Source: a bacterium
Lineage (GTDB): Bacteria > Sysuimicrobiota > Sysuimicrobiia > Sysuimicrobiales > Kaftiobacteriaceae
Length of the DNA: 64,000 nucleotides
Direction: 5' to 3'
Assembly (NCBI GenBank): GCA_036505015.1
Contig: DASXUC010000026.1
Location: 4,229-68,228 of the forward strand
Shown here: positions 3,309 through 17,767 of the stretch, in pieces
How the letters are laid out: each line of letters begins with the position of its first letter
How positions within the stretch are numbered: position 1 is the stretch's first letter
Position numbers and translations under genes: made by a program
Notes under the pieces: model-generated
The model's input: the letters and a program-made list of their open reading frames with translations, nothing else
Database searches by the model: none
What the model was told of the DNA's origin: nothing

Positions 3309-3773
3309 CTACTTCACCACGAGCACGCCCTTCATACCGGCCTCGTAGTGTCCTTCAGCGTGGCACGCCATCTCGAAGGTGCCCTTCCGGGTGGGCGTGA
3401 ATTTCAGCTCCGCGCGCTTTCCCGGCTTCACCTCGACCTCAAAGACGCTCGTTCCGGCCACGGCGCCCATCCCCTCAAACTCGCCTTCGACCTCGCCCAT
3501 GTTCTGGAAGTACGTGTTGGGCATGATGTACGCGTCCCAGTCGGACACCTTGCTCTTCGGCGCCGGATAGACCATGAACTCGTGCTCGACCTTGCCCTTG
3601 TTGATCAGAGTGATCTCGGCCTCTACCCCAGCCTGCAGCGTGACCGTGGCGGGAGTGAATTTGAAGTCGGTCATCGTAATCGTGACCTTCTGCACCTTGG
3701 GTGCTCCGGCCGCCGGAACCGCAACCGCCAGGGCCACGATCACAATCAGGATCAGCACTCCCCTCGAACGCAT
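3309..3773 (-). CDS. Membrane-anchored type-1 (blue) copper cupredoxin
   Basis: One TM/signal segment, then a cupredoxin pattern with ligands H(VEHEF)...C-x4-H-x4-M (MACHAEGHYEAGM). Start refined to the ATG at 3773, preceded by GAGGGG. The ORF track extends to 3827. Confidence 0.75.
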   Translation of the reverse strand: MRSRGVLILIVIVALAVAVPAAGAPKVQKVTITMTDFKFTPATVTLQAGVEAEITLINKGKVEHEFMVYPAPKSKVSDWDAYIMPNTYFQNMGEVEGEFEGMGAVAGTSVFEVEVKPGKRAELKFTPTRKGTFEMACHAEGHYEAGMKGVLVVK

Positions 3774-3940: not shown

Positions 3941-5284
3941 CTACTTCAGGGTGAGCAGGTAAGCGACGAGCGCTTTGAGATCGCTATCCGAGGTCTTGTC
4001 GAACGCCGGCATGGTCGCCTGCGGGTTCACGGCACGAGGATTGCGAATGAGGTCCATCAGCTTGTCGCCAGAGTAGGAACCGCTGCCGATGTGTGTGAGT
4101 TCGGGACCGAAGTCGACCCCCTCGCCCTTGACCAAATGGCAGTTGAGGCATTGGCTTGCTACGAAAACTTGATGACCTTGGTCGATGAGTGCCTGGGGTG
4201 ATCCGGATGGCGCCGGGCGGGTGCCGGGTGGCGGCTGCACCGCCCCCAAATAGGTAAGCCCGGCCAGCGCCACGACGATGACCCCCGCGGCCCCGATTGC
4301 ATAGGTCCGGCGGCGCGGGCGCCGCTCGGGGCTCCTGTCCAGAAGCGGGAGCAGCACGAGCAACGTGATTGCGGCCAGAGGAAGCACCACCACGCCGATC
4401 GGTTCCCACACGGGTCCCTGGAAGTACTTCAGCAGCTGAAAGAGGAAGAGGAAGTACCATTCCGGCCGCGGCACGTACGTGGTCGACGAGGGATCGGCGC
4501 GAACCTCCGTAGGAATCCCCCAGACGGCAGTAAGGCCCAAAAGAATGAGCAGGATGGCCAGCGAGACGGCAAGATCCTCGGCCAGCTGGTCAGGATAGAA
4601 CGGCTTTGTCTTTCGGACCGATGCCTCGTTGCCGGGCGCGGGGGCAATGCCGTGCCTGTAGACGAGGTAGAGATGGAGGATAACGAGCGGCACCAAGAGA
4701 GCCGGAAGCACCAACACATGCACGGAGAAAAACCGCACAAGCGTGACGGGACCGACGTCGGCTTCGCCCCGCACGATCCGCAGGAGCCAGTCGCCGATCA
4801 GCGGCACTGTACCGACGACTTTTGTGCCTACCACTGTGGCCCAGTATGAACGCTGGGTCCAGGGCAGCAGGTATCCCGTGAAGGCAAACCCCATGACAAG
4901 TACCGCGAGGCCAACACCGGCTATCCAGGTCAGCTCCCGCGGAGCTTTGTACGATCCCCAGGCGAACACCCGCAGCAGGTGGAGGGCGATGACGATGATC
5001 AGCGCGTTCGCGCCCCAGTGATGCAGACCGCGCACGACCGAGCCGAAGAATACCTGCGTCGTCACAAACGTGATGCTGTCGTAGGCGTTCTCCGGCGTGG
5101 GCGAGTAGTTCAATGCCAGGACGATTCCGGTAACGACCTGAAGGACGAGCAGGAAAAGGGCGACGCTGCCCAGCGTGTGCGGAAGCCCGGTCTCTTCCGG
5201 CAGATTGCGGTTCAGAAATCCGCCGAACAACGGCCCCCCGAGTCTCTCTCGCAGCCAGCCGGAACGTCGCGGGGTCTCTGTCAC
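3941..5284 (-). CDS. Cytochrome b (b6 plus subunit-IV-like) fused to a C-terminal monoheme cytochrome c
   Basis: 447 aa. Bis-His heme b helices (GLHHWGANA...ALHLLRVF; FSVHVLV...ILHLYLV). C-terminal CLNCH heme-c motif with a downstream Met (ATMPAF). Confidence 0.85.
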   Translation of the reverse strand: MTETPRRSGWLRERLGGPLFGGFLNRNLPEETGLPHTLGSVALFLLVLQVVTGIVLALNYSPTPENAYDSITFVTTQVFFGSVVRGLHHWGANALIIVIALHLLRVFAWGSYKAPRELTWIAGVGLAVLVMGFAFTGYLLPWTQRSYWATVVGTKVVGTVPLIGDWLLRIVRGEADVGPVTLVRFFSVHVLVLPALLVPLVILHLYLVYRHGIAPAPGNEASVRKTKPFYPDQLAEDLAVSLAILLILLGLTAVWGIPTEVRADPSSTTYVPRPEWYFLFLFQLLKYFQGPVWEPIGVVVLPLAAITLLVLLPLLDRSPERRPRRRTYAIGAAGVIVVALAGLTYLGAVQPPPGTRPAPSGSPQALIDQGHQVFVASQCLNCHLVKGEGVDFGPELTHIGSGSYSGDKLMDLIRNPRAVNPQATMPAFDKTSDSDLKALVAYLLTLK

Positions 5285-5790
5285 GTACCGCCCCGGTGGA
5301 AGGCACCCATATACAGGGCCTCCCCCTCGACTTTCGCCTCATAGTAATCCAAGGGCCGCGGTGGGGGGCCGCTGACCACGTCCCCCTTTGCGTTGAAGAC
5401 TCCATTGTGACAGGGGCAAATGAACAGCCCGCGGGAGACGTCCCAATGATACGCGCACCCGAGGTGCGTGCAGTGGTTGTCAAAAATCTTGAACCCGCCC
5501 TCCGGGAGCCTGACGACCCACACCTGCATCTGGCCGGTAACGTTCACCCACCCTTCCTGCGACGGGTGGACATGATGCGCGAGCCGGGGCTCCGCGCCAA
5601 AGGCGGAAACGGGCCCGACCTTGATCCACTGGGCCTTCTCCTGCCTTCGGATTGCCGGAGAAAAGATGCTCCCGAGAGTCGGGACGCCGACGAGCAGGCC
5701 GATCAGAGTGGCGAGGCCCCAGAAGAGGCGTCCAAAGAACGTCCGCCGGCTGATCGCCAGTGCACCCCCGGTTGCTGGTCCGTCTGCCAC
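5281..5790 (-). CDS. Rieske [2Fe-2S] subunit of a bc-type complex
   Basis: CTHLGC and CPCHNG boxes with an N-terminal TM helix. There is a 4-nt overlap with the cytochrome b gene. Confidence 0.9.
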   Translation of the reverse strand: MADGPATGGALAISRRTFFGRLFWGLATLIGLLVGVPTLGSIFSPAIRRQEKAQWIKVGPVSAFGAEPRLAHHVHPSQEGWVNVTGQMQVWVVRLPEGGFKIFDNHCTHLGCAYHWDVSRGLFICPCHNGVFNAKGDVVSGPPPRPLDYYEAKVEGEALYMGAFHRGGT

Positions 5791-5802
5791 AGCAGCGGGG
5801 CG

Positions 5803-6291
5803 CTAGCGCGTCATTTTGAGCGGTGCCGGGGGACTGGCCGGCAGTCGATAGACAACGTAAGCGTGGTCGGTTTTCGCATGACACACGTTGCAGGCGCCGA
5901 CAATCTGCGGCACCAAGCCTTGATACTGTGACCAGTTCTTTGCTTTCGCAGCGGCTACAAGCTTGTCGAGGTAGTTGGTCTCAAACGCTTTGAGGAGAGG
6001 AGCCCTCGCGGGCCGGGTCGTCTCGGCGACTTCCTGAATCTCTATCATCTCGTCGAGCATGTATGTGGCGAGATCCCAGTTGCCACCTTTTGCCGCGTAG
6101 TATGCGTTCGTGAAGCGGGCCCCGTACTCGATCATCACGGTCCCCAAGCCCGGCTGGATACTCGCCAGTGTGTTGAACTTCTCATCCGTTGTGCCCTTCA
6201 GCCAGCTCGGGGCTTGGGTATATGCGACGCCCACCGCGAGCCCGGTAATAAGCACGATCCCCACGAAGACTGCCGTGTTTCGGGACATCAT
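5803..6291 (-). CDS. Membrane-anchored c-type cytochrome with a single C-terminal CxxCH (class-II / cytochrome c-prime-like layout)
   Basis: 162 aa with an N-terminal TM helix and a helical-looking body. The only heme motif, CNVCH, lies about 25 aa from the C-terminus. Confidence 0.6.
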   Translation of the reverse strand: MMSRNTAVFVGIVLITGLAVGVAYTQAPSWLKGTTDEKFNTLASIQPGLGTVMIEYGARFTNAYYAAKGGNWDLATYMLDEMIEIQEVAETTRPARAPLLKAFETNYLDKLVAAAKAKNWSQYQGLVPQIVGACNVCHAKTDHAYVVYRLPASPPAPLKMTR

Positions 6292-6365
6292 CTATCCTCC
6301 CTTCATCAGATTGCGTGCGTTGACTCGCGCGTGACGTTCGGAGATGCGCTGCGATGTTCCTGGCA

Positions 6366-6839
6366 TCATCGGTTCCCGGCATCAATTACGACCAGGTGTC
6401 CGATCATCGTGTCGTGATCCGGTGAACACGTCGCCGTCGCCGGATCGTACGGTAGGTAGCACCGGTACACAAAAATTCCCGGCTTATCCGCCACAAACGT
6501 GAGCACTTCCGATGCCTGCTCGCCACCGGTGAGAGGTCCGGTGCGCACGCCGTATCCGACAATTTCGATCCCGTGGCGGTAGAAGGATTGGTTGATAACC
6601 CGCAGGTGGACGGTATCCCCCCGTCGGACGACCATTAACTGGGGATCATAGAGGTGACGAAGCGCCGGCCCACCGATCGACCCCTCCGTGGTGACAAGGA
6701 GGGAAAGGTCGATCGTCGTGGCGGGGGCGGGAGCGGGATGGGTAGGGGCCGGTGTCAGCAGTATCAGCAGGCTGAGCGCGATGCCCGCAACCGAGACCGC
6801 AAGCGTAACCCCCCTCACGGCCGACCTGGAGCCATCCAT
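6366..6839 (-). CDS. Membrane-anchored cupredoxin-like protein, paralog A (H-x37-C-x10-C-x3-H-x2-M)
   Basis: 157 aa with a TM anchor. Cupredoxin beta pattern (RRGDTVHLRVIN...HGIEI...GIFVYRCYLPYDPATATCSPDHDTMIGHLVV). Confidence 0.65.
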   Translation of the reverse strand: MDGSRSAVRGVTLAVSVAGIALSLLILLTPAPTHPAPAPATTIDLSLLVTTEGSIGGPALRHLYDPQLMVVRRGDTVHLRVINQSFYRHGIEIVGYGVRTGPLTGGEQASEVLTFVADKPGIFVYRCYLPYDPATATCSPDHDTMIGHLVVIDAGNR

Positions 6840-6848
6840 CGAGGCACC

Positions 6849-7391
6849 CTATTCCGTCACGATGAGGTAGCCGAGCATGAGATCGTGGTCAGGAGTGCAG
6901 TTAAATTTCGCGGGATCGTATGGAAGGATGCATCGGTACGCGAAGACCCCGGTCTGATCGGCGATGAAGTGCAGGCGGTCGCTGGTGCCTGGTTTGAGGA
7001 CCCCGGTCTTAAGGTTGTACCCGGAGAGCTCCAACTGGTGGTTCACCTTGTCCGGATTGCCAACGGCAAGGTCCACGGTGTCGCCTTTGCGCACAACGAG
7101 CATGGTAGGATACCAACGGTGCGCCGCCATCCCCTGCCCACTGAACGTGGCGACCACCATGGAAAGCTTCAGTGTCGCCGGCTGTCGAGGTGGAGGTGTG
7201 ACTTCGGTCGTGGCGCGGCGGGCATAAGCGATTCCGCTGACCGCCAGAGCCACGATGGCGACGAAGAGAGCAAAGTAGCCCGTCCCGTTGCTGCGGCGTT
7301 CCATGCTATTTGACCGCCTGAGCTCCCATTTACCCTTTAGGTTACCGTACCAATACGCACCGCGCATAGGGTGTCCGCCTGATTTGGGCAT
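6849..7391 (-). CDS. Membrane-anchored cupredoxin-like protein, paralog B (H-x35-C-x10-C-x3-H-x2-M)
   Basis: 180 aa. Same architecture as paralog A (RKGDTVDLAVGN...HQLEL...GVFAYRCILPYDPAKFNCTPDHDLMLGYLIV). GAGGAG RBS lies 6 nt upstream of the ATG at 7391. Confidence 0.65.
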   Translation of the reverse strand: MPKSGGHPMRGAYWYGNLKGKWELRRSNSMERRSNGTGYFALFVAIVALAVSGIAYARRATTEVTPPPRQPATLKLSMVVATFSGQGMAAHRWYPTMLVVRKGDTVDLAVGNPDKVNHQLELSGYNLKTGVLKPGTSDRLHFIADQTGVFAYRCILPYDPAKFNCTPDHDLMLGYLIVTE

Positions 7392-7603
7392 CTACATCTC
7401 CTCTAATTGACGGAGCGCGCTCGTCCTTGTGCAAGGTCCTTTCACGCGCAAATGGCGACCGTCGGAAACATCGGATTGACGCTGTAGAACTCCCTCGGGT
7501 CTTTCGTCGTCTCCAGAATCGGCTGGGAACCCGATACATAGACCGGCAGGGGGTGCCTACGCTGAAACCGTCAGAGATAACGATCCATAAAGGAGGAGTC
7601 ACA

Positions 7604-8173
7604 ATGGCGGCACAGACCACCGTTTATGATGATCCTAAGTTCGTGCGGACACTATTCTCTACTTCAACGTTCGCATGGCTGTGGGCGATAGTGCGCATCT
7701 GGCTTGGCTGGCAGTGGATTCAGGCAGCGGAGCACAAGATCGGCGACGCGGCCTGGGTCGGAGGGGGCGCCGCGCTGAAGGGTTTCTGGGAGCGCGCGGT
7801 CGCGATCCCGGCGGCCCCAGCCAGGCCGGCAATCACGTTCGACTGGTACCGCAGTTTCCTGCAGTACATGCTGGATATCCACGCATACACATGGTTCGCG
7901 AAGATCGTCGCATACGGCGAACTACTGGTGGGCATCGCGCTGATCGTCGGTGCCTTCGTCGGCATCGCCGCGTTCTTCGGGGCGCTGATGAACTTCAACT
8001 TCATGCTGGCGGGATCGGCCAGCACAAACCCGATGCTGTTCATCATCGCGGTCCTGCTGGTCCTGGCCTGGAAGGTCGCCGGATACTACGGGCTGGACCG
8101 CTACCTCCTGTCGGTCCTGGGCACGCCCTGGAAGCCGGGACGCGTCTTCAAAGGTCGGCCGGTGATGGCCTGA
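7604..8173 (+). CDS. DoxX-family membrane protein
   Basis: DoxX-like 4-TM pattern (YGELLVGIALIVG...MNFNFMLAG...VLAWKVAGYYGLD). Start refined to the ATG at 7604, with AGGAGG at 7591. Confidence 0.8.
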   Translation: MAAQTTVYDDPKFVRTLFSTSTFAWLWAIVRIWLGWQWIQAAEHKIGDAAWVGGGAALKGFWERAVAIPAAPARPAITFDWYRSFLQYMLDIHAYTWFAKIVAYGELLVGIALIVGAFVGIAAFFGALMNFNFMLAGSASTNPMLFIIAVLLVLAWKVAGYYGLDRYLLSVLGTPWKPGRVFKGRPVMA

Positions 8174-8190
8174 TCGCTGAGGGAAACAAA

Positions 8191-8230
8191 GGGAGCAGAG
8201 GGAAAGATCCTTCTGCTCCCACTTTCGTGT
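8191..8230 (+). terminator. Putative intrinsic terminator after the DoxX gene
   Basis: About 12-bp stem GGGAGCAGAGGG / CCTTCTGCTCCC with a 6-nt loop, followed by ACTTTCGTGT (weak U-tract). Confidence 0.5.
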
Positions 8231-8242
8231 GCGGAGGTGCAT

Positions 8243-8755
8243 ATGAGCATCAGCGCGAGGGAACTGTGGACCGTGCTGCACGGCCTTGTCTTTGGCTCGG
8301 CATTTCTCCTCGCGTTCGCAGGGGGAGTAGCCGGATTGTACAGCCTCCGGCCGGAGTGGGTTACCGTCCAGGGGATCCGCGAGCGGCTGAACCGCCTGCT
8401 CGCCGGTACCTGGATCATGGCGGTAGTCGCCTGGATCACCGTCCTCAGCGGGACGTACATCGTCTACCCGTGGTACCGGGCGCAGGGCCCCACCAGCCCG
8501 CGCTCGATCCTGCTGGCAAGTGATGCCACCAAAACCTGGCACACCTTCGGCATGGAGTGGAAGGAGCACATCGGCTGGTTCGCACCGATTCTCGCCACCG
8601 CGGTGGCCTTCATCGTGACACGGTATGGACCGGATCTCGCCAGGAACAACAAGCTGCGCCAGGCCGCGCTGTGGCTGTTTGTCTTTGCGTTCGCGGCGGC
8701 CGGCATCGCCGGACTCTTCGGGGCGTTCCTGAACAAAGTCGCCCCGGTACGGTAG
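8243..8755 (+). CDS. Hypothetical 4-TM membrane protein with conserved-looking His residues
   Basis: Hydrophobic segments. GGAGG lies 5 nt upstream of the ATG at 8243. No family recognised. Confidence 0.55.
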   Translation: MSISARELWTVLHGLVFGSAFLLAFAGGVAGLYSLRPEWVTVQGIRERLNRLLAGTWIMAVVAWITVLSGTYIVYPWYRAQGPTSPRSILLASDATKTWHTFGMEWKEHIGWFAPILATAVAFIVTRYGPDLARNNKLRQAALWLFVFAFAAAGIAGLFGAFLNKVAPVR

Positions 8756-8768
8756 AGGAGGATTCTCG

Positions 8769-9107
8769 ATGGCACACCAGATGACGATGACCAAACCCAC
8801 GGGTCCCGCCGCGGCCGCCCTCATCGCGGCAGGCCTCGGGACGTTCACGATCGGCTTGATGACCACACTGGCGGAGGCATCGGCGGGATTCAGAAGCTCA
8901 TTGAACTTCTACAACCCGTCGGGGCCCCTTTCAGGCAAGACCGGCGTGGCCGTAGTGGTGTGGCTGATCTCGTGGTTCGTGCTGCACAGCATGTGGAAAA
9001 CCAGAAACCCGGAAATTGGACGCATCCTCACCTGGACGCTCGTGTTCATCGGACTGGGCTTCCTGCTCACATTTCCGCCGATCTTTGAAGCGTTCGCGGC
9101 CGAATAA
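8769..9107 (+). CDS. Hypothetical small 3-TM membrane protein
   Basis: 112 aa with a GAGGAGG RBS upstream. No family recognised. Confidence 0.55.
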   Translation: MAHQMTMTKPTGPAAAALIAAGLGTFTIGLMTTLAEASAGFRSSLNFYNPSGPLSGKTGVAVVVWLISWFVLHSMWKTRNPEIGRILTWTLVFIGLGFLLTFPPIFEAFAAE

Positions 9108-9211: not shown

Positions 9212-10042
9212 ATGGCCGACATCCCCCCGCCGTCTGAATCGCAGCAACTGGGCAGGCGTCTGGGTCTTGTCATTCTCCTGATGGTCCTCGTCGGCGGGGT
9301 CGGCTCGTTCCTGTGGGCCATGCGGCACTTGTGGCTGCCGCCCGTGGCATCGCAGCAGGGCATCGACGTCGATCGTCTGTTCACGATCACCCTCATCGTC
9401 ACCGGGGCAGCATTCATCCTCGTGCATCTCTTCCTGGGTATCTTCGCCTGGCGGTATGCCGACCGGGGGCAAAAAGAACGCGCGTACTACTGGCACGATA
9501 ACCGCACGCTCGAGCTGACGTGGACGCTGGTGCCGGCGGCCGTGCTGGTGACGCTGATTTCGATGGGCGCCGTCGTCTGGCTGCGCGTGCACAGCGCTCC
9601 GCCAGCGGATGTGATGGTCGTGGATGTGCACGCCCAGCAGTTCGGGTGGATGTTCCGCTACCCCGGTCCGGATGGAAAGTTCGGGCGCAACGAAGGCATC
9701 CGGATGACACCGGGCAACCCGCTGGGCATCGATCCGGCGGATCCCGCGGGCGCCGACGACATCGTCGCCCGGGAACTGCACTTGATCCTTGGGCAGCCTG
9801 TACAGGTGCGGCTGTCATCGACCGATGTGCTGCACAGTTTCTTTCTGCCGAACTTCCGCGTGAAGCAGGACGTCGTGCCCGGCATGTACACGACGGCGTG
9901 GTTTGTGCCGACGGCATCCGGCAAGTTCGAGATTGCCTGCGCGGAGCTGTGCGGAGTCGGCCACTACATCATGCGCAGTCAGGTGGTCGTCGAGCCGACG
10001 CGAGCGGCGTTTGACGCGTGGCTGGCAAAACAGAAGAAGTGA
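9212..10042 (+). CDS. ctaC: Cytochrome c oxidase subunit II (CuA, no fused cytochrome c)
   Basis: Two N-terminal TM helices. Canonical CuA motif H-x34-C-x3-C-x3-H-x2-M (HSFF...CAELCGVGHYIM). Confidence 0.9.
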   Translation: MADIPPPSESQQLGRRLGLVILLMVLVGGVGSFLWAMRHLWLPPVASQQGIDVDRLFTITLIVTGAAFILVHLFLGIFAWRYADRGQKERAYYWHDNRTLELTWTLVPAAVLVTLISMGAVVWLRVHSAPPADVMVVDVHAQQFGWMFRYPGPDGKFGRNEGIRMTPGNPLGIDPADPAGADDIVARELHLILGQPVQVRLSSTDVLHSFFLPNFRVKQDVVPGMYTTAWFVPTASGKFEIACAELCGVGHYIMRSQVVVEPTRAAFDAWLAKQKK

Positions 10043-10066
10043 ATCGCGACTCGTGAATCGTGAATC
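10039..10066. repeat. Tandem heptads GTGAATC x4 (one degenerate) in the coxII-coxI gap
   Basis: GTGAATC GCGACTC GTGAATC GTGAATC. The first unit contains the coxII stop codon. Confidence 0.85.
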
Positions 10067-10100
10067 GAACTACGGTTGACCTCATGAGGGGTGCACTAGC

Positions 10101-11933
10101 ATGGCGGTGACGCACGAAGCGGCGCACGGGGAGCACGAGCACCGGCTGAGCTTCTGGAAGAAGTACGTCTTCAGCCAGGACCACAAGATCATCGGGATGC
10201 AGTACTTGATGACGTCGTTCTTCATGGCGCTGGTCGGCGGCTTCCTGGCGATGCTGATCCGGATGCAGTTGGGCTTCCCGGCGCTGAAGTTCTACTGGGC
10301 GCAGTTTCTGTTCCCCGGCGGGTTCTCGGGCGACCAGATGAAGCCGGACTTCTACCTCGCCGTCGTCACCATGCACGGCACGATCATGATCTTCTTCGTG
10401 CTCACCACGGCGTTGTCCGGCGGCTTCGGCAACCTGTTGATCCCGCTGCAGATCGGCGCGCGCGACATGGCCTTCCCGTGGCTGAACATGGTGTCGTACT
10501 GGCTGTACCCGCCGGCGATCCTCATCCTGCTCGCCTCGTTCTTCGTCACCGGAGGCGCAGCCAGCGCGGGGTGGACGTCGTATCCGCCGTTATCGGCGCT
10601 GCGCAACGCCGTGCCGGGATCCTACCTGGGGCAAACGCTGTGGCTACTCAGCCTGGCGCTGCTCATTTTGGCGTTCCTGTTCGGGTCACTGAACTACATC
10701 ACGACGGTGCTGCAGCTGCGCACGCGCGGGATGTCGATGAGCCGGCTGCCCCTGCTGACCTGGGCGCAGTTCATCACCGCCATCTTGATGCTGCTGTCGT
10801 TCCCCGTGCTGCTGGCGGCGGCGATCATGATGCTGTTCGACCGCCACCTGGGAACCAGTTTCTTCGTCCCCGGCGGTCTGGTCGTCAACGGCGTGCCGGT
10901 CTCCCACAAAGGCGGCGATCCAATCCTCTGGCAGCACCTGTTCTGGTTTCTCGGCCACCCCGAAGTGTATGTGCTGATCCTGCCGCCGATGGGCATCGTC
11001 TCCGAGGTCCTGTCGACGAACGGGCGGAAGCCGATTTTCGGCTACTTCTTCATGGTCGGCAGCCTGGCCTCAATCGCATTCCTCAGTTTCCTGGTGTGGG
11101 GACATCACATGTTCACCAGCGGTATGGATCCGCTGCTGGGCACGGCGTTCATGACCACGACCCTGCTGATCGCGGTCCCGTCGGCCATTAAGACGTTCAA
11201 CTGGCTGGCCACGCTGTGGCGGGCCAAGATCCGCTATACGTCGGCGACCCTGTTTGCGGTGGGCTTCATCTCCCTGTTCGTCACCGGCGGGCTCACCGGC
11301 ATCTTCCTGGCGTCGCCGGCGATCGACATCCACTTTCAGGACACGTTTTTCGTCGTCGCCCACTTCCACTTCGTGATGGCCAGCGCGGCCCTGTTCGGCC
11401 TGTTCGCGGGGACGTATCACTGGTTCCCCAAGATGTTCGGACGCCTGATGAACGAGCGGCTCGGCAGGATCCACTTCTGGCTGACATTTGTAGGAGTGTA
11501 CGCCACGTTCTTCCCGATGCACTTCGCGGGCACTGCGGGGATGATGCGGCGGATCTTCTCCACGCAGATGTACCAGTTTCTCCAGCCCGTCTCCGGGTTG
11601 AACGCGTTCGTCTCGATCGCGGGATTTGTGCTCGGGACGGCGCAGCTGATCTTCGCCTACAACTTCATCTACAGCGCCTTCCGCGGGGCCAAGGCCGGCG
11701 CGAATCCCTGGGAGGCGAACACCCTGGAGTGGCAGGCCCCCTCCCCGCCCCCGCACGGCAACTGGGGAGCGACCCTCCCGGTCGTCTACCGCTGGCCGTA
11801 CGACTACAGCGTTCCGGATGCCGAGGAGGACTATCTCCCGCAAACCGTTCCCCAGCGGGCGGCATCGACGGTGCAGGGAGCACCCGAAGAGGCGCCATCG
11901 CTGCACGCAAAACCGCGGGGTGAAGAAGCGTAA
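10101..11933 (+). CDS. ctaD: Cytochrome c oxidase subunit I (heme-copper oxidase, A-type)
   Basis: 610 aa. Contains WFLGHPEVYVLILP, HHMFTSG and VVAHFHFVM motifs. Confidence 0.95.
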   Translation: MAVTHEAAHGEHEHRLSFWKKYVFSQDHKIIGMQYLMTSFFMALVGGFLAMLIRMQLGFPALKFYWAQFLFPGGFSGDQMKPDFYLAVVTMHGTIMIFFVLTTALSGGFGNLLIPLQIGARDMAFPWLNMVSYWLYPPAILILLASFFVTGGAASAGWTSYPPLSALRNAVPGSYLGQTLWLLSLALLILAFLFGSLNYITTVLQLRTRGMSMSRLPLLTWAQFITAILMLLSFPVLLAAAIMMLFDRHLGTSFFVPGGLVVNGVPVSHKGGDPILWQHLFWFLGHPEVYVLILPPMGIVSEVLSTNGRKPIFGYFFMVGSLASIAFLSFLVWGHHMFTSGMDPLLGTAFMTTTLLIAVPSAIKTFNWLATLWRAKIRYTSATLFAVGFISLFVTGGLTGIFLASPAIDIHFQDTFFVVAHFHFVMASAALFGLFAGTYHWFPKMFGRLMNERLGRIHFWLTFVGVYATFFPMHFAGTAGMMRRIFSTQMYQFLQPVSGLNAFVSIAGFVLGTAQLIFAYNFIYSAFRGAKAGANPWEANTLEWQAPSPPPHGNWGATLPVVYRWPYDYSVPDAEEDYLPQTVPQRAASTVQGAPEEAPSLHAKPRGEEA

Positions 11934-12577
11934 TGGCCGCGCGCGCCTCGACACTTCAGGAACGGCCGGCGCCCCCGCACGGTCCCAGGGGACCATCCGG
12001 CGAGGGCGGCGGCTCCGGTCGCGATGGCGACGGGGTCGTGCAGCCGGTCAGCCCGGCAAGGATCGCCGTCTGGCTGTTCGTGGGCACGGTCACCGTGCTG
12101 TTCGCGGCGTTTACCAGTACGTACCTCGCCAGGCGCGGAGGACCGGGGTGGACGGATGTGCCGCTGCCGTCCATCCTCTGGTTGAGCACGGCGATCCTCG
12201 CGATCAGCAGCGGCGTCCTGGAATGGGCGCGCCGGGCGGGCCGGGCAGGCGACGTCGGCGGGCTGCGCAGGGGAGTAACCCTCACCACCATCCTGGGAAT
12301 CGGGTTCCTGGCGGCGCAGCTCGCCGCCTGGCGGCAGCTGGTCGCTGCGGGGCTGTATCTGAGCTCGAATGCGCACAGTTCCTTCTTCTATCTGCTCACC
12401 GGCGCGCATGGGCTGCATCTCGTCGGGGGTATCGCCGCCTTGCTGTACACGGTGCGGAAGGTCTATCGCGCCCACGAGCCCGGCGAAGCCCTGGCGGTGA
12501 CCGATCCCACCGCAACGTTCTGGCACTTCCTTGGAATCCTGTGGGTCTATCTGTTTATCTTGTTGTTCTGGATCTGA
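11933..12577 (+). CDS. Cytochrome c oxidase subunit III-like protein (paralog 1)
   Basis: COX3-type helices (FFYLLTGAHGLHLVGG...FWHFLGILWVYLF). TAATG overlap with ctaD. Confidence 0.8.
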   Translation: MAARASTLQERPAPPHGPRGPSGEGGGSGRDGDGVVQPVSPARIAVWLFVGTVTVLFAAFTSTYLARRGGPGWTDVPLPSILWLSTAILAISSGVLEWARRAGRAGDVGGLRRGVTLTTILGIGFLAAQLAAWRQLVAAGLYLSSNAHSSFFYLLTGAHGLHLVGGIAALLYTVRKVYRAHEPGEALAVTDPTATFWHFLGILWVYLFILLFWI

Positions 12578-12584
12578 GATTGGG

Positions 12585-13241
12585 GTGTCGGTGGTGGCCG
12601 TAGAGCACGAAGCGCCAGGCATGGAGCACCACGCGGCCGACCAGGCCCGCGTCCTGGCGTCCCCATGGGGAGGCGGCAAATCCCCGTTCGCCGTCGGCTG
12701 GCCGAAGCTGATGATGTGGCTGTTCCTGGTCTCCGACACGTTAACGTTCGCGGGACTACTCAGCGGCTACGGCGTGATGCGGCTGTCGCTGGGCACGTGG
12801 CCGCATCAGTCGGAGATCTTCAACATCTGGCTGGTCGGCACGATGACCTTCATCCTGATCTGCAGCAGTGCGACCATGGCCGTGGCGGTGGCCGCGGCGC
12901 GATTGGGCGACAATCGCACGGTGCTGCGCTTCCTCATGCTTACCGTCCTGGGCGGCCTGTTCTTCCTCGGCGCCCAGGCCTATGAGTGGACGCATTTCAT
13001 CCGCGAAGGGGCCCGGCTGTTTGGGAACCCATGGGGCGTGCCCCAGTTCAGCGCGACGTTTTTCATCATCACCGGGTTCCACGGCGGGCACGTGACCGGC
13101 GGGGTGATCTATCTGGCCATCACCGCGCTGCGCTGGACCCGCCGCCGGATCAAACCCGAGAGCATCGAGATCGCCGGACTGTACTGGCACTTTGTGGACC
13201 TGGTATGGGTGTTCATTTTCACGCTGCTCTACTTGATTTAG
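12585..13241 (+). CDS. ctaE: Cytochrome c oxidase subunit III (paralog 2)
   Basis: COX3 motifs (FFIITGFHGGHVTGG...LYWHFVDLVWVFIF). The start is uncertain (GTG at 12585 or ATG at 12621). The track ORF starting at 12531 overlaps the previous gene. Confidence 0.8.
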   Translation: MSVVAVEHEAPGMEHHAADQARVLASPWGGGKSPFAVGWPKLMMWLFLVSDTLTFAGLLSGYGVMRLSLGTWPHQSEIFNIWLVGTMTFILICSSATMAVAVAAARLGDNRTVLRFLMLTVLGGLFFLGAQAYEWTHFIREGARLFGNPWGVPQFSATFFIITGFHGGHVTGGVIYLAITALRWTRRRIKPESIEIAGLYWHFVDLVWVFIFTLLYLI

Positions 13242-13259
13242 CCGAGCAAGCGAGGAAGC

Positions 13260-13595
13260 ATGGAAGCGAGGAAGCATTCGGTGGAAGAACGCGGTGAAGG
13301 GCCGGAGCAGCACCAGCAGGGTGGGTACCGGATTTACGTCGTGGTGTGGTTCTGGCTGCTCGTGTTTACGTTGATCGAAATCGGGATCGTCGTCTTGGGG
13401 GTCCCGAAGTGGGCGCTGGTCAGCGGGCTATTGGTGCTGGCGATGATGAAGGCCGCCCTCATTGTTGCGTACTTCATGCACCTGCGATATGAGCGTCTGA
13501 GCATGATCTACACGGTCGTGACCCCGCTGCTGCTGGGGTTCGTCTTGTTCGCGGCCCTGGGGCCCGACGCCGTCCACGTCTTCCTCTCACGCTGA
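13260..13595 (+). CDS. Prokaryotic cytochrome c oxidase subunit IV-like small membrane protein
   Basis: 111 aa, 3 TM, with AYFMHLRYE typical of the bacterial subunit IV family. Last gene of the cox operon. Confidence 0.7.
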   Translation: MEARKHSVEERGEGPEQHQQGGYRIYVVVWFWLLVFTLIEIGIVVLGVPKWALVSGLLVLAMMKAALIVAYFMHLRYERLSMIYTVVTPLLLGFVLFAALGPDAVHVFLSR

Positions 13596-14627: not shown

Positions 14628-15266
14628 CTAGAACCGCGCGGCCGCCGGTGTCCGGCGGTCCACGATGTAGAAGATAATCAGGACCACCGGCCACATCACA
14701 AACGCGGCGGGTGTGTAGACCACCGCGACGGGGATCGACGCCAGGAAGACGATCCCGACGGAGAACAGCCGCACCTGCAGATGCCGTATCACCCGCGGAT
14801 CCGTGGTTGCACGGATCAGTTTCTCGCGCGCGGCGAAGCTCCACATCTCCAAACAGGTCAGGGCCGCGGCGGCCTGTGCGGCGGCGAACAGGATGACCGC
14901 TGGAGCGGATCCCGGATAGTCGCCCACCGTGACAATCGGAAACGGCAGAAACGCCACACACAGCAGCACGATCAGATTCCAGACCAGCAGGCCGTGATTC
15001 AGCCGATCGATGTACCGGAACATGCGGTGATGGGTGATCCAGAAGAACGACAGGATCCAAAAGCCGAACGCGAAGCTCAGGAAGTCAGGCAGTTGCTCGT
15101 AGAGGCGTTGAGGGACTTCTTCCAGAGTCATACCGTGAGGCAGATCGAAGCCCAGGACGATTAGCGTAATGGCAATCGCAAACACCGCGTCGCTGAACAG
15201 GTAGACCCGACCCAGCGCAGGCCCGAGCTCCGTTTCCTCGCCGTGTTGCCCTCCGGGGTGGTCCAT
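14628..15266 (-). CDS. TMEM175-family (DUF1211) potassium-channel-like protein, paralog 2
   Basis: 6-TM protein with the TM1 signature RVYLFSDAVFAIAITLIVL. Confidence 0.8.
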   Translation of the reverse strand: MDHPGGQHGEETELGPALGRVYLFSDAVFAIAITLIVLGFDLPHGMTLEEVPQRLYEQLPDFLSFAFGFWILSFFWITHHRMFRYIDRLNHGLLVWNLIVLLCVAFLPFPIVTVGDYPGSAPAVILFAAAQAAAALTCLEMWSFAAREKLIRATTDPRVIRHLQVRLFSVGIVFLASIPVAVVYTPAAFVMWPVVLIIFYIVDRRTPAAARF

Positions 15267-15919
15267 TACCTCACACCCGCGCTGGCGAACCGGCGCCGCA
15301 GGCGCCCCTGGATCACCGCGATCAGAAACAGGGCGAGGTAGGCCGCCGGCACGCTAACGAATGCGATGAACGCCGAGAGCACAAAAACAGACGGGGCGGA
15401 CAGCGCCCGCCACGTGAAGTGGTTGATCACGTCCTCGGGCGTATCCGCGCCGATCAGCCGGCGGCGCGCCGCGTACGCCCACACCCCGGCGGAGGCAAAC
15501 CCCACCAGGGCCATCGATCCGGCATAGAAAGCCTCGGCGGCGGGAAGGTCGCCATACCGGCCCAGCAGCTCCACCGGATACGGCAGGAAGCCCACCGCGA
15601 ACAGCATGAGAAAGTTCAGACCCAGCAGGGTTCCGTCGTACCGCTCGATGTACTGAAACATGCGATGATGCGCCATCCAGTAGATGGCGACCATCCAGAA
15701 ACTGAACGCGTACGACGCAAACCGCGGCGCCTGCGCCACCAGCGCCGGGACCAGCTCGCTGCCGGCAAGACGTGCGGGAATGTCGGGAACATCGAGGCTC
15801 ACGACCAGCAGCGTGATGGCAAACGCGAAGATGCCGTCGCTGAAGGCCACGACCCGGTCCATGGCCTTTCCCGAGCCTGGAGCGTCTCGCTCCAGCTTCT
15901 GATCGGGAGGCGCCGTCAT
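15266..15919 (-). CDS. TMEM175-family (DUF1211) potassium-channel-like protein, paralog 1
   Basis: 6-TM protein with the TM1 signature RVVAFSDGIFAFAITLLVV. Its stop overlaps the start of the downstream paralog (TAATG). Confidence 0.8.
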   Translation of the reverse strand: MTAPPDQKLERDAPGSGKAMDRVVAFSDGIFAFAITLLVVSLDVPDIPARLAGSELVPALVAQAPRFASYAFSFWMVAIYWMAHHRMFQYIERYDGTLLGLNFLMLFAVGFLPYPVELLGRYGDLPAAEAFYAGSMALVGFASAGVWAYAARRRLIGADTPEDVINHFTWRALSAPSVFVLSAFIAFVSVPAAYLALFLIAVIQGRLRRRFASAGVR

Positions 15920-15964: not shown

Positions 15965-16564
15965 ATGCTGGCGATGGACAACCTCACGAAGCTGCTCGTG
16001 GTCTTCTTCGGCGTGATAAACCCCCTGATGACGCTGGTCACGTTTCCATCCCTGACCCGCGGGATGAACCGCAGCACGCAGGCGGCCACCGCGGTGCTGG
16101 CGACGCTGGTCGCATTCGGCATCCTCGCGGTGTTCGCGATCGCAGGAGACGATGTCCTCCGATTCCTCGACGTCAGCCTGCCTTCGTTTCGCATCGCCGG
16201 CGGGCTTGTCCTGGGCCTGTCGGCGGTACACCTCATCCAGCACGGCGAGCCCACCCCGCCCTCGGGCGAAGGCGCGAAAACTCCGACGGACGTCCTGGTG
16301 CCGCTGGCGACGCCCCTGATTGCCGGCCCGGCAACGATCACGGCGGCCGTGGCCTATGCGCACCTGTACAACGATCTGGAAACGATCGTGGCCGGAGCCA
16401 TCATCCTGCTGCTGACGCTGGCGATCATGCTCGCCAGCGGGTGGCTGACCACCCGCATCCCCCGGTCGGCTCTGTCCGTCGCGGCCCGGTTGATGGGCCT
16501 GCTGCTGCTTGCGCTGGCGTTCGACCTCGCGGCGGACGGCATCAAGGCGCACTTCATGCCGTAA
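15965..16564 (+). CDS. MarC-family (UPF0056) integral membrane protein
   Basis: About 200 aa, 6 TM, N-terminal LLVVFFGVINPL motif. Start refined to the ATG at 15965; the upstream part of the track ORF is antisense to the TMEM175 gene. Confidence 0.8.
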   Translation: MLAMDNLTKLLVVFFGVINPLMTLVTFPSLTRGMNRSTQAATAVLATLVAFGILAVFAIAGDDVLRFLDVSLPSFRIAGGLVLGLSAVHLIQHGEPTPPSGEGAKTPTDVLVPLATPLIAGPATITAAVAYAHLYNDLETIVAGAIILLLTLAIMLASGWLTTRIPRSALSVAARLMGLLLLALAFDLAADGIKAHFMP

Positions 16565-16585
16565 CCCGATCCGCTTCGCGGCGAA

Positions 16586-17767
16586 TTACTGATCCGGCGG
16601 CAGCGGTTTGAGGACATTGATGAACGCCCATACGAAGTCCAGCGGGAGAAACTTCGCGCTGCCGTCCGCGTTGTAGTACCAGGACCGCACCGGCGGCCCG
16701 ACGTGTCCGGCGCGGGGATTGCGGGACCGGAACACGCTCAGCGTCTGTCCGGCCGCGTTGACGGTCGAGCGCCCGTGGCAGGTCATGCACGAGGCGGTGG
16801 GGACGAAGCCCTTCTCCAGCAGGGTATTTCCCAGCAGCGTGGGGGTGCCGGTCGCATCCGTGTACTGCGTCTGCGTGCCCTTCAACCGGTAGTTGAGCCA
16901 CTCGCTGCCCAGCCCCCTGCGGCGCATCAGCGCCACCAGCTCCGCGCTGAGTCGACCAGGCGGGTAGAGTCCGCCCGATGTGCCATTGGGGTTGACGCGC
17001 TGAGGCACCGCCCCGAACTGGTCGTGGCAGCCGATGAAGTCGCACCGGCCGATCACGTCCACATGCTCGAAGGTGGCCCAGAACCATAGCGGCAGATCCT
17101 TGGTCATGATGTGAAACGCGGCCAGCCCGTAGAGGAGGCCGTCGTCAGCGTAGTTCCAGTGGTACCGTGGTTTATCGCGGACGTTGATGGGAATCCAGAT
17201 CGCCTTCACCTCGATCGAGTCGATCGGGAAGTCGACCTCGAACGACCCGGCCTGGGCGCGCAGGAAAGCGTCGATCAGCCCGTCACGGTACCACAAGTTG
17301 TTGGAGACGATGTAGTCATACGTCGGCTTGTTGCGGTAGACCACTTCCTGCTCATCGGTCTCGATGCCCAGTGCTTCGAGCTTCTGGATGGGCTGGAGGT
17401 TGTCGCTGCGGTGCTTGAGGCCGGGCCAGACCGGACACTGTTTGGGATCCGGGCGCAGCCCGGTGCAGGCGGCCGGGTTCCCGTTCGGGGGAAACGTATC
17501 GTCGTCAGTGGCCCAGGTTTCCCAGATCGTATCGTTCGACCCGTTGTTCGCCGCCCGGCTGATCTCGATCATGGTCTTCCAAGCAAATACCGCGGGCTGG
17601 TTCGCCGCCGGATTGGTGTCCCGCTGCGTGCCCCAGGCCGTGAGTCCTGCCGCTGCTACCAACACGCCGATCACCAAGAGGATGATGCCTGATCTCCGCC
17701 CGCCCATCGCGTCCCCCTCGCCCAAGATCAAGGATTCGCCGTACGCAGTCCTCGGATTTTGCGACAA
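16586..17767 (-). CDS. Exported hypothetical protein with a single CxxCH heme-c-type motif
   Basis: 393 aa with an N-terminal TM/signal segment. Trp-rich body (WFWATFEH) and CMTCHGRS near the C-terminus. No family recognised. Confidence 0.6.
   Translation of the reverse strand: MSQNPRTAYGESLILGEGDAMGGRRSGIILLVIGVLVAAAGLTAWGTQRDTNPAANQPAVFAWKTMIEISRAANNGSNDTIWETWATDDDTFPPNGNPAACTGLRPDPKQCPVWPGLKHRSDNLQPIQKLEALGIETDEQEVVYRNKPTYDYIVSNNLWYRDGLIDAFLRAQAGSFEVDFPIDSIEVKAIWIPINVRDKPRYHWNYADDGLLYGLAAFHIMTKDLPLWFWATFEHVDVIGRCDFIGCHDQFGAVPQRVNPNGTSGGLYPPGRLSAELVALMRRRGLGSEWLNYRLKGTQTQYTDATGTPTLLGNTLLEKGFVPTASCMTCHGRSTVNAAGQTLSVFRSRNPRAGHVGPPVRSWYYNADGSAKFLPLDFVWAFINVLKPLPPDQ

Follow-up and report, generated by a model that had tools for sequence, protein, structure and literature searches.

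Tandem membrane-anchored cupredoxins with an expanded CuA-like ligand loop in a bacterium of the Sysuimicrobiota

Two adjacent genes in the window (the whole 64,000-nucleotide stretch of contig DASXUC010000026.1 analysed here) encode membrane-anchored cupredoxins, A and B, that carry the ligands of a CuA centre in the CuA order, with 10 residues instead of three between the two cysteines. The reading towards which we lean, on balance, is that both are electron-transfer subunits of the CuA type whose loop has been expanded, acting downstream of quinol-oxidising modules.

The gene pair and its neighbours

The original prediction, which was made from the letters of the window, had described tandem cupredoxin genes with the ligand pattern H-x35/37-C-x10-C-x3-H-x2-M, and both parts of this description held. 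The two ORFs are present in tandem on the reverse strand (Table 1), each with a single transmembrane helix, and a regular-expression search recovered H89-x37-C127-x10-C138-x3-H142-x2-M145 in A and H118-x35-C154-x10-C165-x3-H169-x2-M172 in B (numbered from ATG 7391). The motif quoted for the oxidase subunit II of the window was likewise found, as H208-x34-C243-x3-C247-x3-H251-x2-M254 in CoxII (9212-10042). A and B are 40% identical to each other, and each contains exactly two cysteines. The one N-terminal hydrophobic helix of each protein was recognised by hydropathy and spans residues 2-28 (A) and 6-32 (B) of the AF2 models.

Table 1. Positions of the cupredoxin genes, their ligand loops and the neighbouring genes in the window
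Feature	Position	Strand	Description
Cupredoxin A	6366-6839	-	ORF; 157 aa; one TM helix, Pro/Ala linker and cupredoxin domain
Cupredoxin B	6849-7391	-	ORF; 180 aa from ATG 7391; one TM helix and cupredoxin domain
Ligand loop of A	6405-6461	-	C127-YLPYDPATAT-C138-SPD-H142-DT-M145 (regex); upstream ligand His89 at 6573-6575
Ligand loop of B	6876-6932	-	C154-ILPYDPAKFN-C165-TPD-H169-DL-M172 (regex); upstream ligand His118 at 7038-7040
Putative c-type cytochrome	5803-6291	-	162 aa, membrane-anchored; one CNVCH haem-c motif near C-terminus; bc operon
Rieske [2Fe-2S] protein	5281-5790	-	PF00355, E = 1.2e-9; Tat-like SRRTFF motif at N-terminus
Cytochrome b (N- and C-terminal parts)	3941-5284	-	Fused C-terminal mono-haem cytochrome c domain; PF00033, PF00032, PF00034, PF13442
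Type-1 (T1) cupredoxin, canonical, single-Cys	3309-3773	-	Membrane-anchored; PF13473, E = 6.9e-16, and PF00127; loop C-HAEG-H-YEAG-M
A-family haem-copper oxidase operon	9212-13595	+	CoxII (without fused cytochrome c), CoxI, two COX3-like ORFs, COX4_pro; divergent from B-A
DoxX-like protein and two membrane proteins lacking assignment	7427-9107	+	Weak DoxX match; upstream of CoxII

The translation start of B is ambiguous, because the length of its homologues favours ATG 7304 but a Shine-Dalgarno sequence precedes ATG 7391. The homologues are around 151 aa long and cover 84% of the long ORF, which fits ATG 7304, and the Shine-Dalgarno sequence, GAGGAG, lies 6 nt upstream of ATG 7391. B is probably 151 aa long and initiated at ATG 7304, as in the homologues.

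The start of the cytochrome b gene overlaps the stop of the Rieske gene by 4 bp. The T1 cupredoxin, which belongs to the same operon as A and B, has the single cysteine and the C-x2-4-H-x2-4-M loop of its class and is conserved at the end of related clusters. The 162-aa CxxCH protein has no family match in Pfam or NCBIfam, and its similarity to cytochrome c' is non-significant. The original prediction had omitted this protein, the T1 cupredoxin and the cytochrome c fused to cytochrome b. On the other side of the pair, the genes at 7427-9107 are syntenic in three related loci (L001, L011 and L017).

Conservation of the two-cysteine pattern and kinship with CuA domains

Lack of conservation of the two cysteines in homologues was among the outcomes that the original prediction had named as refuting it, and the pattern C-x10-C-x3-H is kept in all 240 of the closest 90%-identity clusters (120/120 A-type and 120/120 B-type). 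Exactly two cysteines are present in 238 of these 240 clusters, and the axial Met is kept in 236, with Gln or Ile in the remaining four. The sequence search gave 128 homologous clusters for A. To judge from these alignments, the two-Cys pattern is not a product of chance.

An exhaustive profile search for the wider family returned 3,779 matches, and A and B, by their sequences, belong to a large and widespread family of bacteria and archaea that is unnamed and unstudied. Among the best 150 of the 3,779 matches, the spacer between the cysteines is x3, x4 or x9-x16, the C-x3-H-x2-X half is unchanged, and the axial residue is M, Q, I, L or V. Replacement of the axial Met by Gln, Ile, Leu or Val is seen in many expanded-loop members and in none of the 13 x3 members. 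The stand-alone x3 relatives exceed the Pfam COX2 threshold. The insertion between the cysteines carries a conserved LP[Y/H][D/N]P-x. Across 57 divergent members, only G74, H89, G121, C127, C138 and H142 (A numbering) are invariant, and the invariant His/Cys/Cys/His set is, on this alignment, the His2Cys2 core of CuA. His62 was considered as an additional ligand and rejected, its conservation being lost in the wider family. The PF23509 tag on some distant members was also rejected, as sub-threshold and belonging to the unrelated MSMEG_3727 family. A neighbour-joining tree computed from the core columns carries no support values and serves as a rough guide. No model in Pfam or NCBIfam names proteins of the A/B type, which constitutes an annotation gap, and full-text searches of the open literature (subscription journals lie outside this coverage) found no description of the family or of a cupredoxin/NrfCD module; the CSP1-3 genomics papers covered are silent as well.

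The HMM searches proposed in the original prediction place A and B below curated thresholds, and a profile of the x10 group aligns to the CuA domain of Thermus. Direct family assignment using Pfam, NCBIfam and phmmer against the PDB gave only weak or partial matches, which end at the first Cys. In the Pfam scan A had no match and B reached 20.5 bits for Cupredoxin_1 (PF13473), below the gathering threshold of 27; some homologues of A and B bear a precomputed PF13473 tag. Neither protein matches PF00116 (COX2). The NosZ and CoxB models (TIGR04246, TIGR02866) gave 14-30 bits on A and B against cut-offs of 148-625, and the nitrosocyanin model (TIGR03096) gave 28.7 and 27.4 bits against an equivalog cut-off of 142.85. 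The canonical CuA motif is Hx34Cx3Cx3Hx2M (PMC6189053), and its spacing is absent from A and B, which have x37 and x35, respectively, after the first His, and C-x10-C.

Profile-profile comparison with hhalign aligned the x10 group with the CuA domain of Thermus ba3 oxidase at a probability of 88% (E = 3e-6); the five side-chain ligands (H, C, C, H, M) fall on Thermus H114/C149/C153/H157/M160, and the alignment contains one insertion, of seven residues. The same profile aligned with the x3/x4 group at E = 4e-35 with both cysteines matched, and with the single-Cys T1 group at E = 8e-25 with only C127 matched. With the CoxII of the window, the ligands were paired as expected, but the alignment had little statistical weight (E = 0.015, probability 3%), and therefore the Thermus CuA domain and the x3/x4 group were used instead. 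An x4 paralogue from CSP1-3, of the same phylum, matches 2cua and 1ehk_B ligand for ligand (E = 4e-9 to 6e-8), and also matches the NosZ CuA domain and CoxB models. The AF2 models of A and B are confident (pLDDT 90.7 and 91.3), with eight strands in a cupredoxin beta-sandwich; the ligand loop of B has a pLDDT of 95-97, and that of A is also modelled with confidence. Foldseek searches with these models returned NosZ CuA domains, ba3 subunit II and nitrosocyanin at a probability of 1.00. The ligand set is placed as in CuA domains, in the beta4 region and on the beta7-beta8 loop. The original prediction had taken the motif for an expanded CuA ligand set, and the Thermus register, with its one insertion, and the graded spacers of the relatives bear this out.

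Among characterised proteins, CbaB of Thermus thermophilus (the CuA subunit of ba3 oxidase; 2cua, 1ehk chain B) resembles A and B in having one transmembrane helix and a cupredoxin domain of around 150-170 aa with H...C...C-x3-H-x2-M in register; its fold matches theirs, and in sequence it is significantly similar to the x4 paralogue. In contrast to CbaB, which has a Cys-Cys spacer of three, A and B form a tandem pair that heads quinol-oxidising operons, are neither next to nor obviously paired with an oxidase subunit I, and fall below the Pfam COX2 threshold. Of the NCBIfam models, the C-terminal CuA domain of NosZ (especially the Sec-dependent clade II, TIGR04246) gives the best full-length domain match, extending through the end of the ligand loop, and NosZ structures are among the top Foldseek matches; however, the NosZ model scores 24-50 bits against its equivalog cut-off of 625, there is no CuZ beta-propeller in A or B or nearby in the window, and the loop between the cysteines is expanded. 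A and B are not part of an oxidase subunit II or of NosZ: they are stand-alone proteins of 151-157 aa with no propeller domain, and the oxidase of the window comes with a canonical CoxII of its own. As far as the first Cys, A and B come closest, in direct comparisons of sequence and structure, to nitrosocyanin (red copper, 1iby) and to the N-terminal T1 cupredoxin domain of the NirK of Hyphomicrobium denitrificans (2dv6, 6tfd), but there the alignments end. Both of these have a single Cys and a short loop, C-x2-H or C-x4-H; nitrosocyanin also has Glu60 where A has His89 (B: His118), and its ligand motif is Cys-x2-His-x4-His. We propose that the CuA domain of ba3-type subunit II and NosZ is either the ancestor of A and B or their sister.

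The metal site

If A and B are CuA-type proteins, His89, Cys127, Cys138 and His142 of A would hold a thiolate-bridged binuclear Cu2S2 centre, with Met145 as a weak axial ligand, and the extra seven residues between the cysteines would probably form a closed hairpin excursion that leaves a path between the thiolates like that of C-x4-C. We infer this copper nuclearity from the sequences. In canonical CuA the C-x3-C spacing is strictly conserved and residue C+2 supplies a backbone carbonyl ligand, and an insertion of 7 to 13 residues could abolish the second copper site.

This last consideration, that a long insertion may not suit a Cu2S2 core, speaks for a mononuclear redox copper site, a reading that we regard as unlikely and that would still make A and B electron carriers. 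Such a site would be T1-like, green or red, built from His89, Cys127, His142 and Met145 with Cys138 as a fifth ligand or in the second sphere, or would coordinate one copper by Cys2His2. H89 and C127 do align with the canonical T1 ligand positions of nitrite reductase (NiR) domains and nitrosocyanin, which are also the best direct PDB matches of A, and the axial position accepts M, Q, I, L or V, a freedom better known from T1 sites. However, neither A nor B matches PF00127 (type-1 blue copper), and 14 residues, with a second invariant Cys among them, separate C127, which stands at the end of its strand, from H142, far beyond the loop of two to four in the usual C-x2-4-H-x2-4-M. Mononuclear Cu(II) bis-thiolate sites are, moreover, redox-unstable, and one copper leaves unexplained both the invariance of the second Cys at exactly C-x3-H in every spacer class and the grading of the family into exact CuA motifs.

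The original prediction had also named a copper chaperone for oxidase assembly. Proteins of this kind would bind Cu(I) by Cys2His, or perform thiol-disulfide chemistry, and would metallate the CuA of CoxII or the neighbouring cupredoxins. The pair does adjoin the aa3 oxidase and other cupredoxin genes, two cysteines and a His resemble the Sco ligand set, and a scan of roughly 10 kb next to the oxidase (10 ORFs at 13.2-21.9 kb) turned up neither a Sco nor a PCuAC gene. Cupredoxin-fold Cu(I) chaperones also exist, for example CupA of Streptococcus pneumoniae. We nevertheless consider this role improbable to a greater degree than a mononuclear site, because A and B have the fold and the ligands of a redox cupredoxin and the most conserved partners, NrfC/NrfD-like or Rieske/cytochrome b genes in the same orientation, encode proteins that do not need copper. 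A and B are homologous to redox CuA domains, with the N-terminal His and the axial position kept; they have no Pfam or NCBIfam match to Sco or PCuAC, their fold differs from the thioredoxin fold of Sco, and both the CxxxC...H (Sco) and the H(M)x10Mx21HxM (PCuAC) motifs are absent. An archaeal locus (L014) keeps the gene linkage with no neighbouring oxidase, and two to four chaperone paralogues in series would be unusual.

Least probable of all, in our estimate, is a structural disulfide with no Cu-thiolate bond, which would make A and B either His/Met Cu(I) binders or metal-free docking subunits of a quinol-oxidising complex: the extracytoplasmic cysteines number exactly two, DSSP strings of the AF2 models suggest an insertion that closes on itself, and the two invariant cysteines of PmoD are disulfide-bonded in one of its crystal forms (PMC6189053), so that sequence invariance cannot distinguish a ligand from a disulfide, but the remaining His89 and His142, with a non-ligating axial Ile, Leu or Val in many members, are too few ligands, and the fixed C-x3-H register and the continuity with true CuA motifs would be left unexplained. 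A variant in the original prediction, a T1 site with a loop disulfide, fails on the cysteine count, because a disulfide between the only two cysteines leaves no thiolate ligand. PmoD/AmoD also resembles A and B, being a membrane-anchored cupredoxin that stands alone, belongs neither to an oxidase nor to NosZ, and has a CuA-type centre with a non-canonical arrangement of ligands (PMC6189053); it differs from A and B in that its site is intermolecular, in a homodimer, and lies in another part of the fold, lacking the Hx34C...CxxxHxxM framework kept in A and B.

Gene linkage and a possible role in electron transfer

In relatives, the cupredoxin genes lie directly upstream of genes for an NrfC-like 4x[4Fe-4S] protein and an NrfD-like quinol subunit. 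Eight distinct CSP1-3 loci have B-A (with or without T1 and x4 cupredoxins) followed by the NrfC-like and NrfD-like genes, and the same linkage is found for an x4 gene in a Symbiobacteriaceae-like (Firmicute-like) contig and for an archaeal x10 gene, at a locus (L014) with no adjacent oxidase. Pfam matches to Fer4_11 and NrfD were obtained in L009, L011, L012, L014 and L018, where NCBIfam describes the proteins as DsrO/DsrP-like. Tat signals and 16 Cys characterise the NrfC-like proteins, which lack any haem (CxxCH) motif. No NrfC/NrfD-like homologue was found in the window, in which cytochrome c-Rieske-cytochrome b takes the position of the NrfCD-type module: the flanks are common to the window and L011, and the module is swapped. 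Of the 19 loci retrieved, this window alone links A/B-type genes to bc genes.

The operons of the relatives contain an NrfC/NrfD-like module of the alternative complex III type. Like alternative complex III with auracyanin, a quinol:acceptor oxidoreductase (ActB and ActC are NrfC/NrfD-type) whose electrons go to a membrane-anchored cupredoxin, they combine an exported FeS protein and an NrfD-type subunit with membrane-anchored cupredoxins, near haem-copper oxidases. They differ in that the multihaem ActA and the monohaem ActE-like cytochromes are absent: no cytochrome c genes were called in the CSP1-3 or archaeal operons, and L012 has one small cytochrome c. Furthermore, the cupredoxins of the relatives are CuA-like two-Cys proteins encoded inside the operon, and the module of the window is Rieske/cytochrome b. 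For the 512-aa protein that heads the L012 operon, we considered a NosZ-like propeller (L-NosZ) whose split CuA domain would be the cupredoxin, and rejected this identity, as the protein has only generic beta-propeller matches in NCBIfam.

From this context, A and B would be single-pass, outward-facing cupredoxins that act as electron-transfer subunits or carriers at the outer face of the membrane. They may accept electrons from a quinol-oxidising module, which here would be Rieske/cytochrome b with its fused cytochrome c, and in most relatives the Tat-exported NrfC-like 4x[4Fe-4S] protein on its NrfD-like membrane subunit. The electrons would then reach the CuA of the divergent aa3-type oxidase, either straight from A and B or through the neighbouring T1 cupredoxin. 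We infer this direction of electron flow, as well as the physical pairing of B with A, if any. The original prediction had offered A and B as the missing shuttle between a bc complex and an aa3 oxidase with no fused cytochrome c. An electron-transfer role does fit the gene context, but 'missing' was an overstatement, because a canonical T1 cupredoxin and two candidate c-type haem carriers (the cytochrome c fused to cytochrome b and the separate CxxCH protein) are present in the same operon, and because the bc linkage is an exception, found in one of 19 loci.

A further reading joins two proposals and is, taken as a whole, speculative. The expanded-loop proteins might hold a copper centre not seen before in nature, a cluster derived from CuA and reshaped by the conserved insertion P-[Y/H/W/F]-[D/N] (through, for example, a side-chain ligand that replaces the backbone carbonyl, or an extra metal), and might also form, with the T1 and x4 paralogues, a haem-free 'copper wire' that replaces the multihaem cytochromes of alternative complex III. 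If true, CSP1-3 bacteria, some Firmicutes, and Nitrososphaerota and Thermoplasmata archaea would share a new class of complex for electron transfer from quinol to oxidase.

To our knowledge, natural CuA is known from haem-copper oxidases, NO reductases, NosZ and, unusually, PmoD, with the essentially fixed motif Hx34Cx3Cx3Hx2M. The same occurrence is stated in PMC6189053. Should A and B indeed be CuA-type proteins, their family would be evidence that spacers of 3 to 16 residues between the bridging cysteines are tolerated in nature, and that CuA-type domains serve as free-standing, membrane-anchored redox proteins. Loop effects on CuA have so far been explored only by protein engineering (e.g. 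PMC6115626, PMC7480511), and the family would provide a natural loop-length series for bioinorganic tests of loop structure against nuclearity and potential. The conserved association of these genes with Tat-exported FeS/NrfD modules suggests that electrons travel from quinol to oxygen along a route built on copper and largely free of haem. Organisms of these lineages are abundant in soils and hot springs but uncultivated, and at present their respiratory chains are annotated only as 'cox genes present'.

Tandem two-cysteine cupredoxin genes and their operon

Genes A and B encode membrane-anchored proteins, 40% identical to each other, whose open reading frames are separated by only 9 bp. Each protein has exactly two cysteines and one transmembrane helix, at the N-terminus, and both genes have a GC3 of 0.72 and coding-like G+C contents by codon position. 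A regular-expression check confirmed the originally predicted ligand motifs, namely H89-x37-C127-x10-C138-x3-H142-x2-M145 in A, H118-x35-C154-x10-C165-x3-H169-x2-M172 in B, and the canonical H208-x34-C243-x3-C247-x3-H251-x2-M254 in CoxII of the window. The start of B is ambiguous, because nearly all of its homologues are 151 aa long and match from Met30 (ATG 7304), but ATG 7391 has a strong GAGGAG Shine-Dalgarno sequence 6 nt upstream; with the latter start, the 29-residue N-terminal extension would be cytoplasmic.

Features of the window and of homologous loci from other genomes (L numbers; positions in the locus named)
Feature	Position	Strand	Remarks
A	6366-6839	minus	ORF, 157 aa
B	6849-7391	minus	ORF, 180 aa, from ATG 7391
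Anchored CxxCH protein	5803-6291	minus	162 aa; one CNVCH motif near C-terminus
Rieske	5281-5790	minus	
Cytochrome b with fused C-terminal mono-haem cytochrome c domain	3941-5284	minus	
Canonical membrane-anchored T1 cupredoxin	3309-3773	minus	single Cys; loop C-HAEG-H-YEAG-M; PF13473 (E = 7e-16), PF00127
DoxX-like and two unknown membrane proteins, before CoxII	7427-9107	plus	
Consecutive COX3-like ORFs, then COX4_pro	11933-13595	plus	214 and 236 aa; slightly overlapping as called
Tandem duplicated TMEM175-family potassium-channel-like genes	14628-15919	minus	
L009, x4 paralogue	11003-11449		CSP1-3 genome
L011, protein after NrfD	16314-17207		CSP1-3 operon; ~300 aa
L014, protein after NrfD	10505-11452		archaeal operon; ~300 aa
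L012, beginning of x4-cupredoxin/DsrOP-like operon	5234-7264		Firmicute-like
L015, stand-alone CuA-motif proteins	9556-10041, 11469-11870		Thermoplasmata; 133-161 aa

The minus-strand order is B, A, the CxxCH protein, Rieske, cytochrome b-cytochrome c and the type-1 (T1) cupredoxin, with short intergenic gaps or overlapping genes, and a scan of this operon found no terminator-like sites between its genes. The 4-bp overlap of the Rieske stop with the cytochrome b start points to translational coupling. The CxxCH protein has no family match (its sole similarity, to cytochrome c', is non-significant) and could belong to the bc complex as a c-type cytochrome subunit of a new kind. The T1 cupredoxin, the final gene of the bc operon and kept at the end of related clusters, is an ordinary candidate for a carrier to the oxidase. 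Divergently, the plus strand carries the DoxX-like gene, two genes for unknown membrane proteins, CoxII without a fused cytochrome c, CoxI, the two COX3-like ORFs and COX4. The gene order thus bears out the placement of A and B between a bc-type complex and an aa3 oxidase, but the electron shuttle proposed to be missing is not missing from this operon, which already encodes a blue-copper carrier of the ordinary sort as well as two candidates for c-type haem proteins.

The DoxX-like gene and its two neighbors are syntenic in L001, L011 and L017, and a DoxX-like gene also lies near the pair in L003, L006 and L007. The split COX3-like ORFs are called likewise in L011, which also has the TMEM175-family genes.

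Conservation and relationship to CuA domains

The two-cysteine pattern persists in close homologues, as the original reading required. In a search of 5.8 billion clustered proteins, A matched 128 clusters significantly and B 202; in the best 120 of each, C-x10-C-x3-H is kept in 240 of 240 clusters, exactly two cysteines in 238, and the axial Met in 236 (Gln or Ile in the remaining four). The inserted segment is also conserved in these clusters, as C-[YV]-L-P-[YH]-[DN]-P-x4-C-[AST]-P-D-H.

Pfam upheld the predicted cupredoxin relationship only below threshold, for B (20.5 bits to Cupredoxin_1; cut-off 27), and assigned no family; A had no Pfam match. NCBIfam gave only weak partial matches for both, to nitrosocyanin, NirK and the C-terminal CuA domain of NosZ, and no model in either collection names proteins of this type. 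Direct PDB matches, to nitrosocyanin (1iby) and the N-terminal T1 domain of Hyphomicrobium NirK (2dv6/6tfd), end at the first Cys and put H89 and C127 at canonical cupredoxin ligand positions. AF2 models built from family alignments are confident (pLDDT 90.7 for A and 91.3 for B; 91-97 in the ligand loop). Foldseek matched both to nitrosocyanin and to domains of NirK and NosZ (CuA), and the B model also to ba3 subunit II over its full length; such a fold search confirms the predicted cupredoxin but cannot separate copper-site types.

A HMMER search with the A/B family profile, run exhaustively over 1.84 billion representatives, yielded 3,779 matches at E <= 1e-3 (159 at E <= 1e-10). The ligand loops of the top 150 form two groups, single-Cys T1 relatives and a large two-Cys group with a constant C-x3-H-x2-X, whose two cysteines are 3, 4, 9, 10, 11, 12, 13, 15 or 16 residues apart (x3, x4 and so on). 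Only G74, H89, G121, C127, C138 and H142 are invariant in a 57-sequence alignment of all spacer classes, and H89, C127, C138 and H142 are the predicted His2Cys2 core of a Cu2S2 centre; His62 is invariant within the A/B clades, not across the wider family. The axial residue is Met in all 13 x3 members, mostly Gln in x4 forms, and Met, Gln, Ile, Leu or Val in expanded forms.

In profile-profile comparisons, the x10 profile aligned with the x3/x4 group at E = 4e-35, both cysteines in register around a 6-7-residue insertion, and with the single-Cys T1 group at E = 8e-25, C127 alone matching the T1 Cys. Its alignment with the Thermus ba3 CuA domain (probability 88%, E = 3e-6) has one 7-residue insertion and brings all ligands into register with A (H89/H114, C127/C149, C138/C153, H142/H157 and M145/M160). 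The Thermus sequence was taken from phmmer output of the x4 paralogue in L009, which matches 2cua/1ehk_B ligand for ligand (E = 4e-9 to 6e-8) and the CuA domain of clade II NosZ (E = 1e-13). Stand-alone x3 relatives pass the Pfam COX2 threshold. From this spacer continuum, the profile alignments, the x4 paralogue and the x3 COX2 matches, A and B are divergent expanded-loop relatives of true CuA domains.

The wider expanded-loop family spans Nitrososphaerota, Thermoplasmata and Chloroflexi, always under generic names. The stand-alone proteins of L015, which have the exact CuA motif C-x3-C-x3-H-x2-M and pass Pfam COX2, are encoded on either side of a Fer4_5 membrane protein gene; free-standing canonical CuA domains may also be unstudied.

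Gene neighborhoods in relatives

Close homologues of A and B occur in CSP1-3 (Sysuimicrobiota) or 'Armatimonadota'-labelled MAGs, and each of the eight species-representative loci has B before A. Downstream of the pair, eight distinct CSP1-3 loci carry a gene for an NrfC-like 4x[4Fe-4S] protein and, where the contig continues, one for an NrfD-like quinol-oxidising membrane subunit; a T1 and an x4 cupredoxin often lie between the pair and the NrfC-like gene. The NrfC-like proteins have 16 cysteines, no haem motif, and twin-arginine signals, so they would be exported to the side of the cupredoxin domains; NCBIfam labels them DsrO/DsrP-like. The same linkage recurs in L012, a Symbiobacteriaceae-like contig, where the cupredoxin gene is of the x4 type, and in the archaeal genome L014, where it is of the x10 type.

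The window has no NrfC or NrfD homologue, and it alone among the fetched loci has cytochrome c-Rieske-cytochrome b directly after the pair. Its close relative L011 (CoxI 90-94% identical) shares both flanks, with the oxidase operon at one end and, at the opposite end, the T1 cupredoxin, an HTH regulator and Nramp; where L011 has its NrfCD-type module and a two-component system, the window has the bc module.

A dCache/HAMP/HisKA_3 sensor kinase and a GerE-type response regulator lie beside the pair in L001-L006, L009, L011, L017 and L019, and are absent in the window. The protein after NrfD in L011 and L014, with an N-terminal cupredoxin domain (C-x3-C-x2-H-x3-Q), an Ig-like middle and a C-terminal transmembrane helix, is another uncharacterised two-Cys cupredoxin subunit. 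At the head of the L012 operon are genes for a beta-propeller-like protein of 512 aa and for a small cytochrome c; the former had generic matches only and was rejected as a NosZ.

Copper site and proposed role

We favour, by a modest measure, the reading of A and B as binuclear-copper electron-transfer proteins, each domain of which would hold two coppers. DSSP of both AF2 models places isolated bridge residues at C1+5 and C2-1, around a three-residue helical turn, and on the simplest reading the insertion may loop out as a closed hairpin, so that the path between the cysteines would stay C-x4-C-like, as it is in the x4 relatives. A mononuclear redox copper site is rather unlikely. Less probable still is a copper chaperone: two different quinol-oxidising modules occupy the same slot beside the same cupredoxins, our strongest functional argument, and this indicates that the B-A pair is instead the redox partner of such a module. 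A disulfide or otherwise non-thiolate protein seems least probable, since it would leave only two His, accompanied in many members by an Ile, Leu or Val that cannot act as a ligand; sequence alone is unable to settle this point, because the invariant cysteines of PmoD can be observed as a disulfide in one state yet sustain a CuA site in a different one (PMC6189053). A T1 site with a loop disulfide, among the explanations first offered, fails on logic, as a disulfide between the only two cysteines leaves no thiolate ligand.

As redox partners, B and A would receive electrons from quinol oxidation at cytochrome b/Rieske in the window, or at the NrfD-like subunit in relatives. Electrons would exit on the outer face through the fused cytochrome c and the CxxCH protein, or through four [4Fe-4S] clusters. 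The CuA-like B and A, tethered to the membrane, would take them up, perhaps with the T1 cupredoxin in series, and hand them on to CuA of the aa3-type oxidase; this direction of flow is the presumed one. B and A may pair as a heterodimer, or may act as bound subunits and not as mobile carriers.

Full-text literature searches, which reached few subscription journals, turned up no account of CuA-like cupredoxins with an expanded loop or of a module joining cupredoxins to NrfCD, and two CSP1-3 genomics papers do not mention A/B-type proteins. The CuA-type cupredoxin is already known as an electron-transfer protein; what is not known from earlier work is that such proteins stand alone in pairs, have 9-16 residues between the two cysteines, and associate, in more than one domain of life, with quinol-oxidising modules poor in haem. 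The A/B family, whose soluble domain has about 110 residues, is relevant to both bioinorganic chemists and microbial bioenergeticists.
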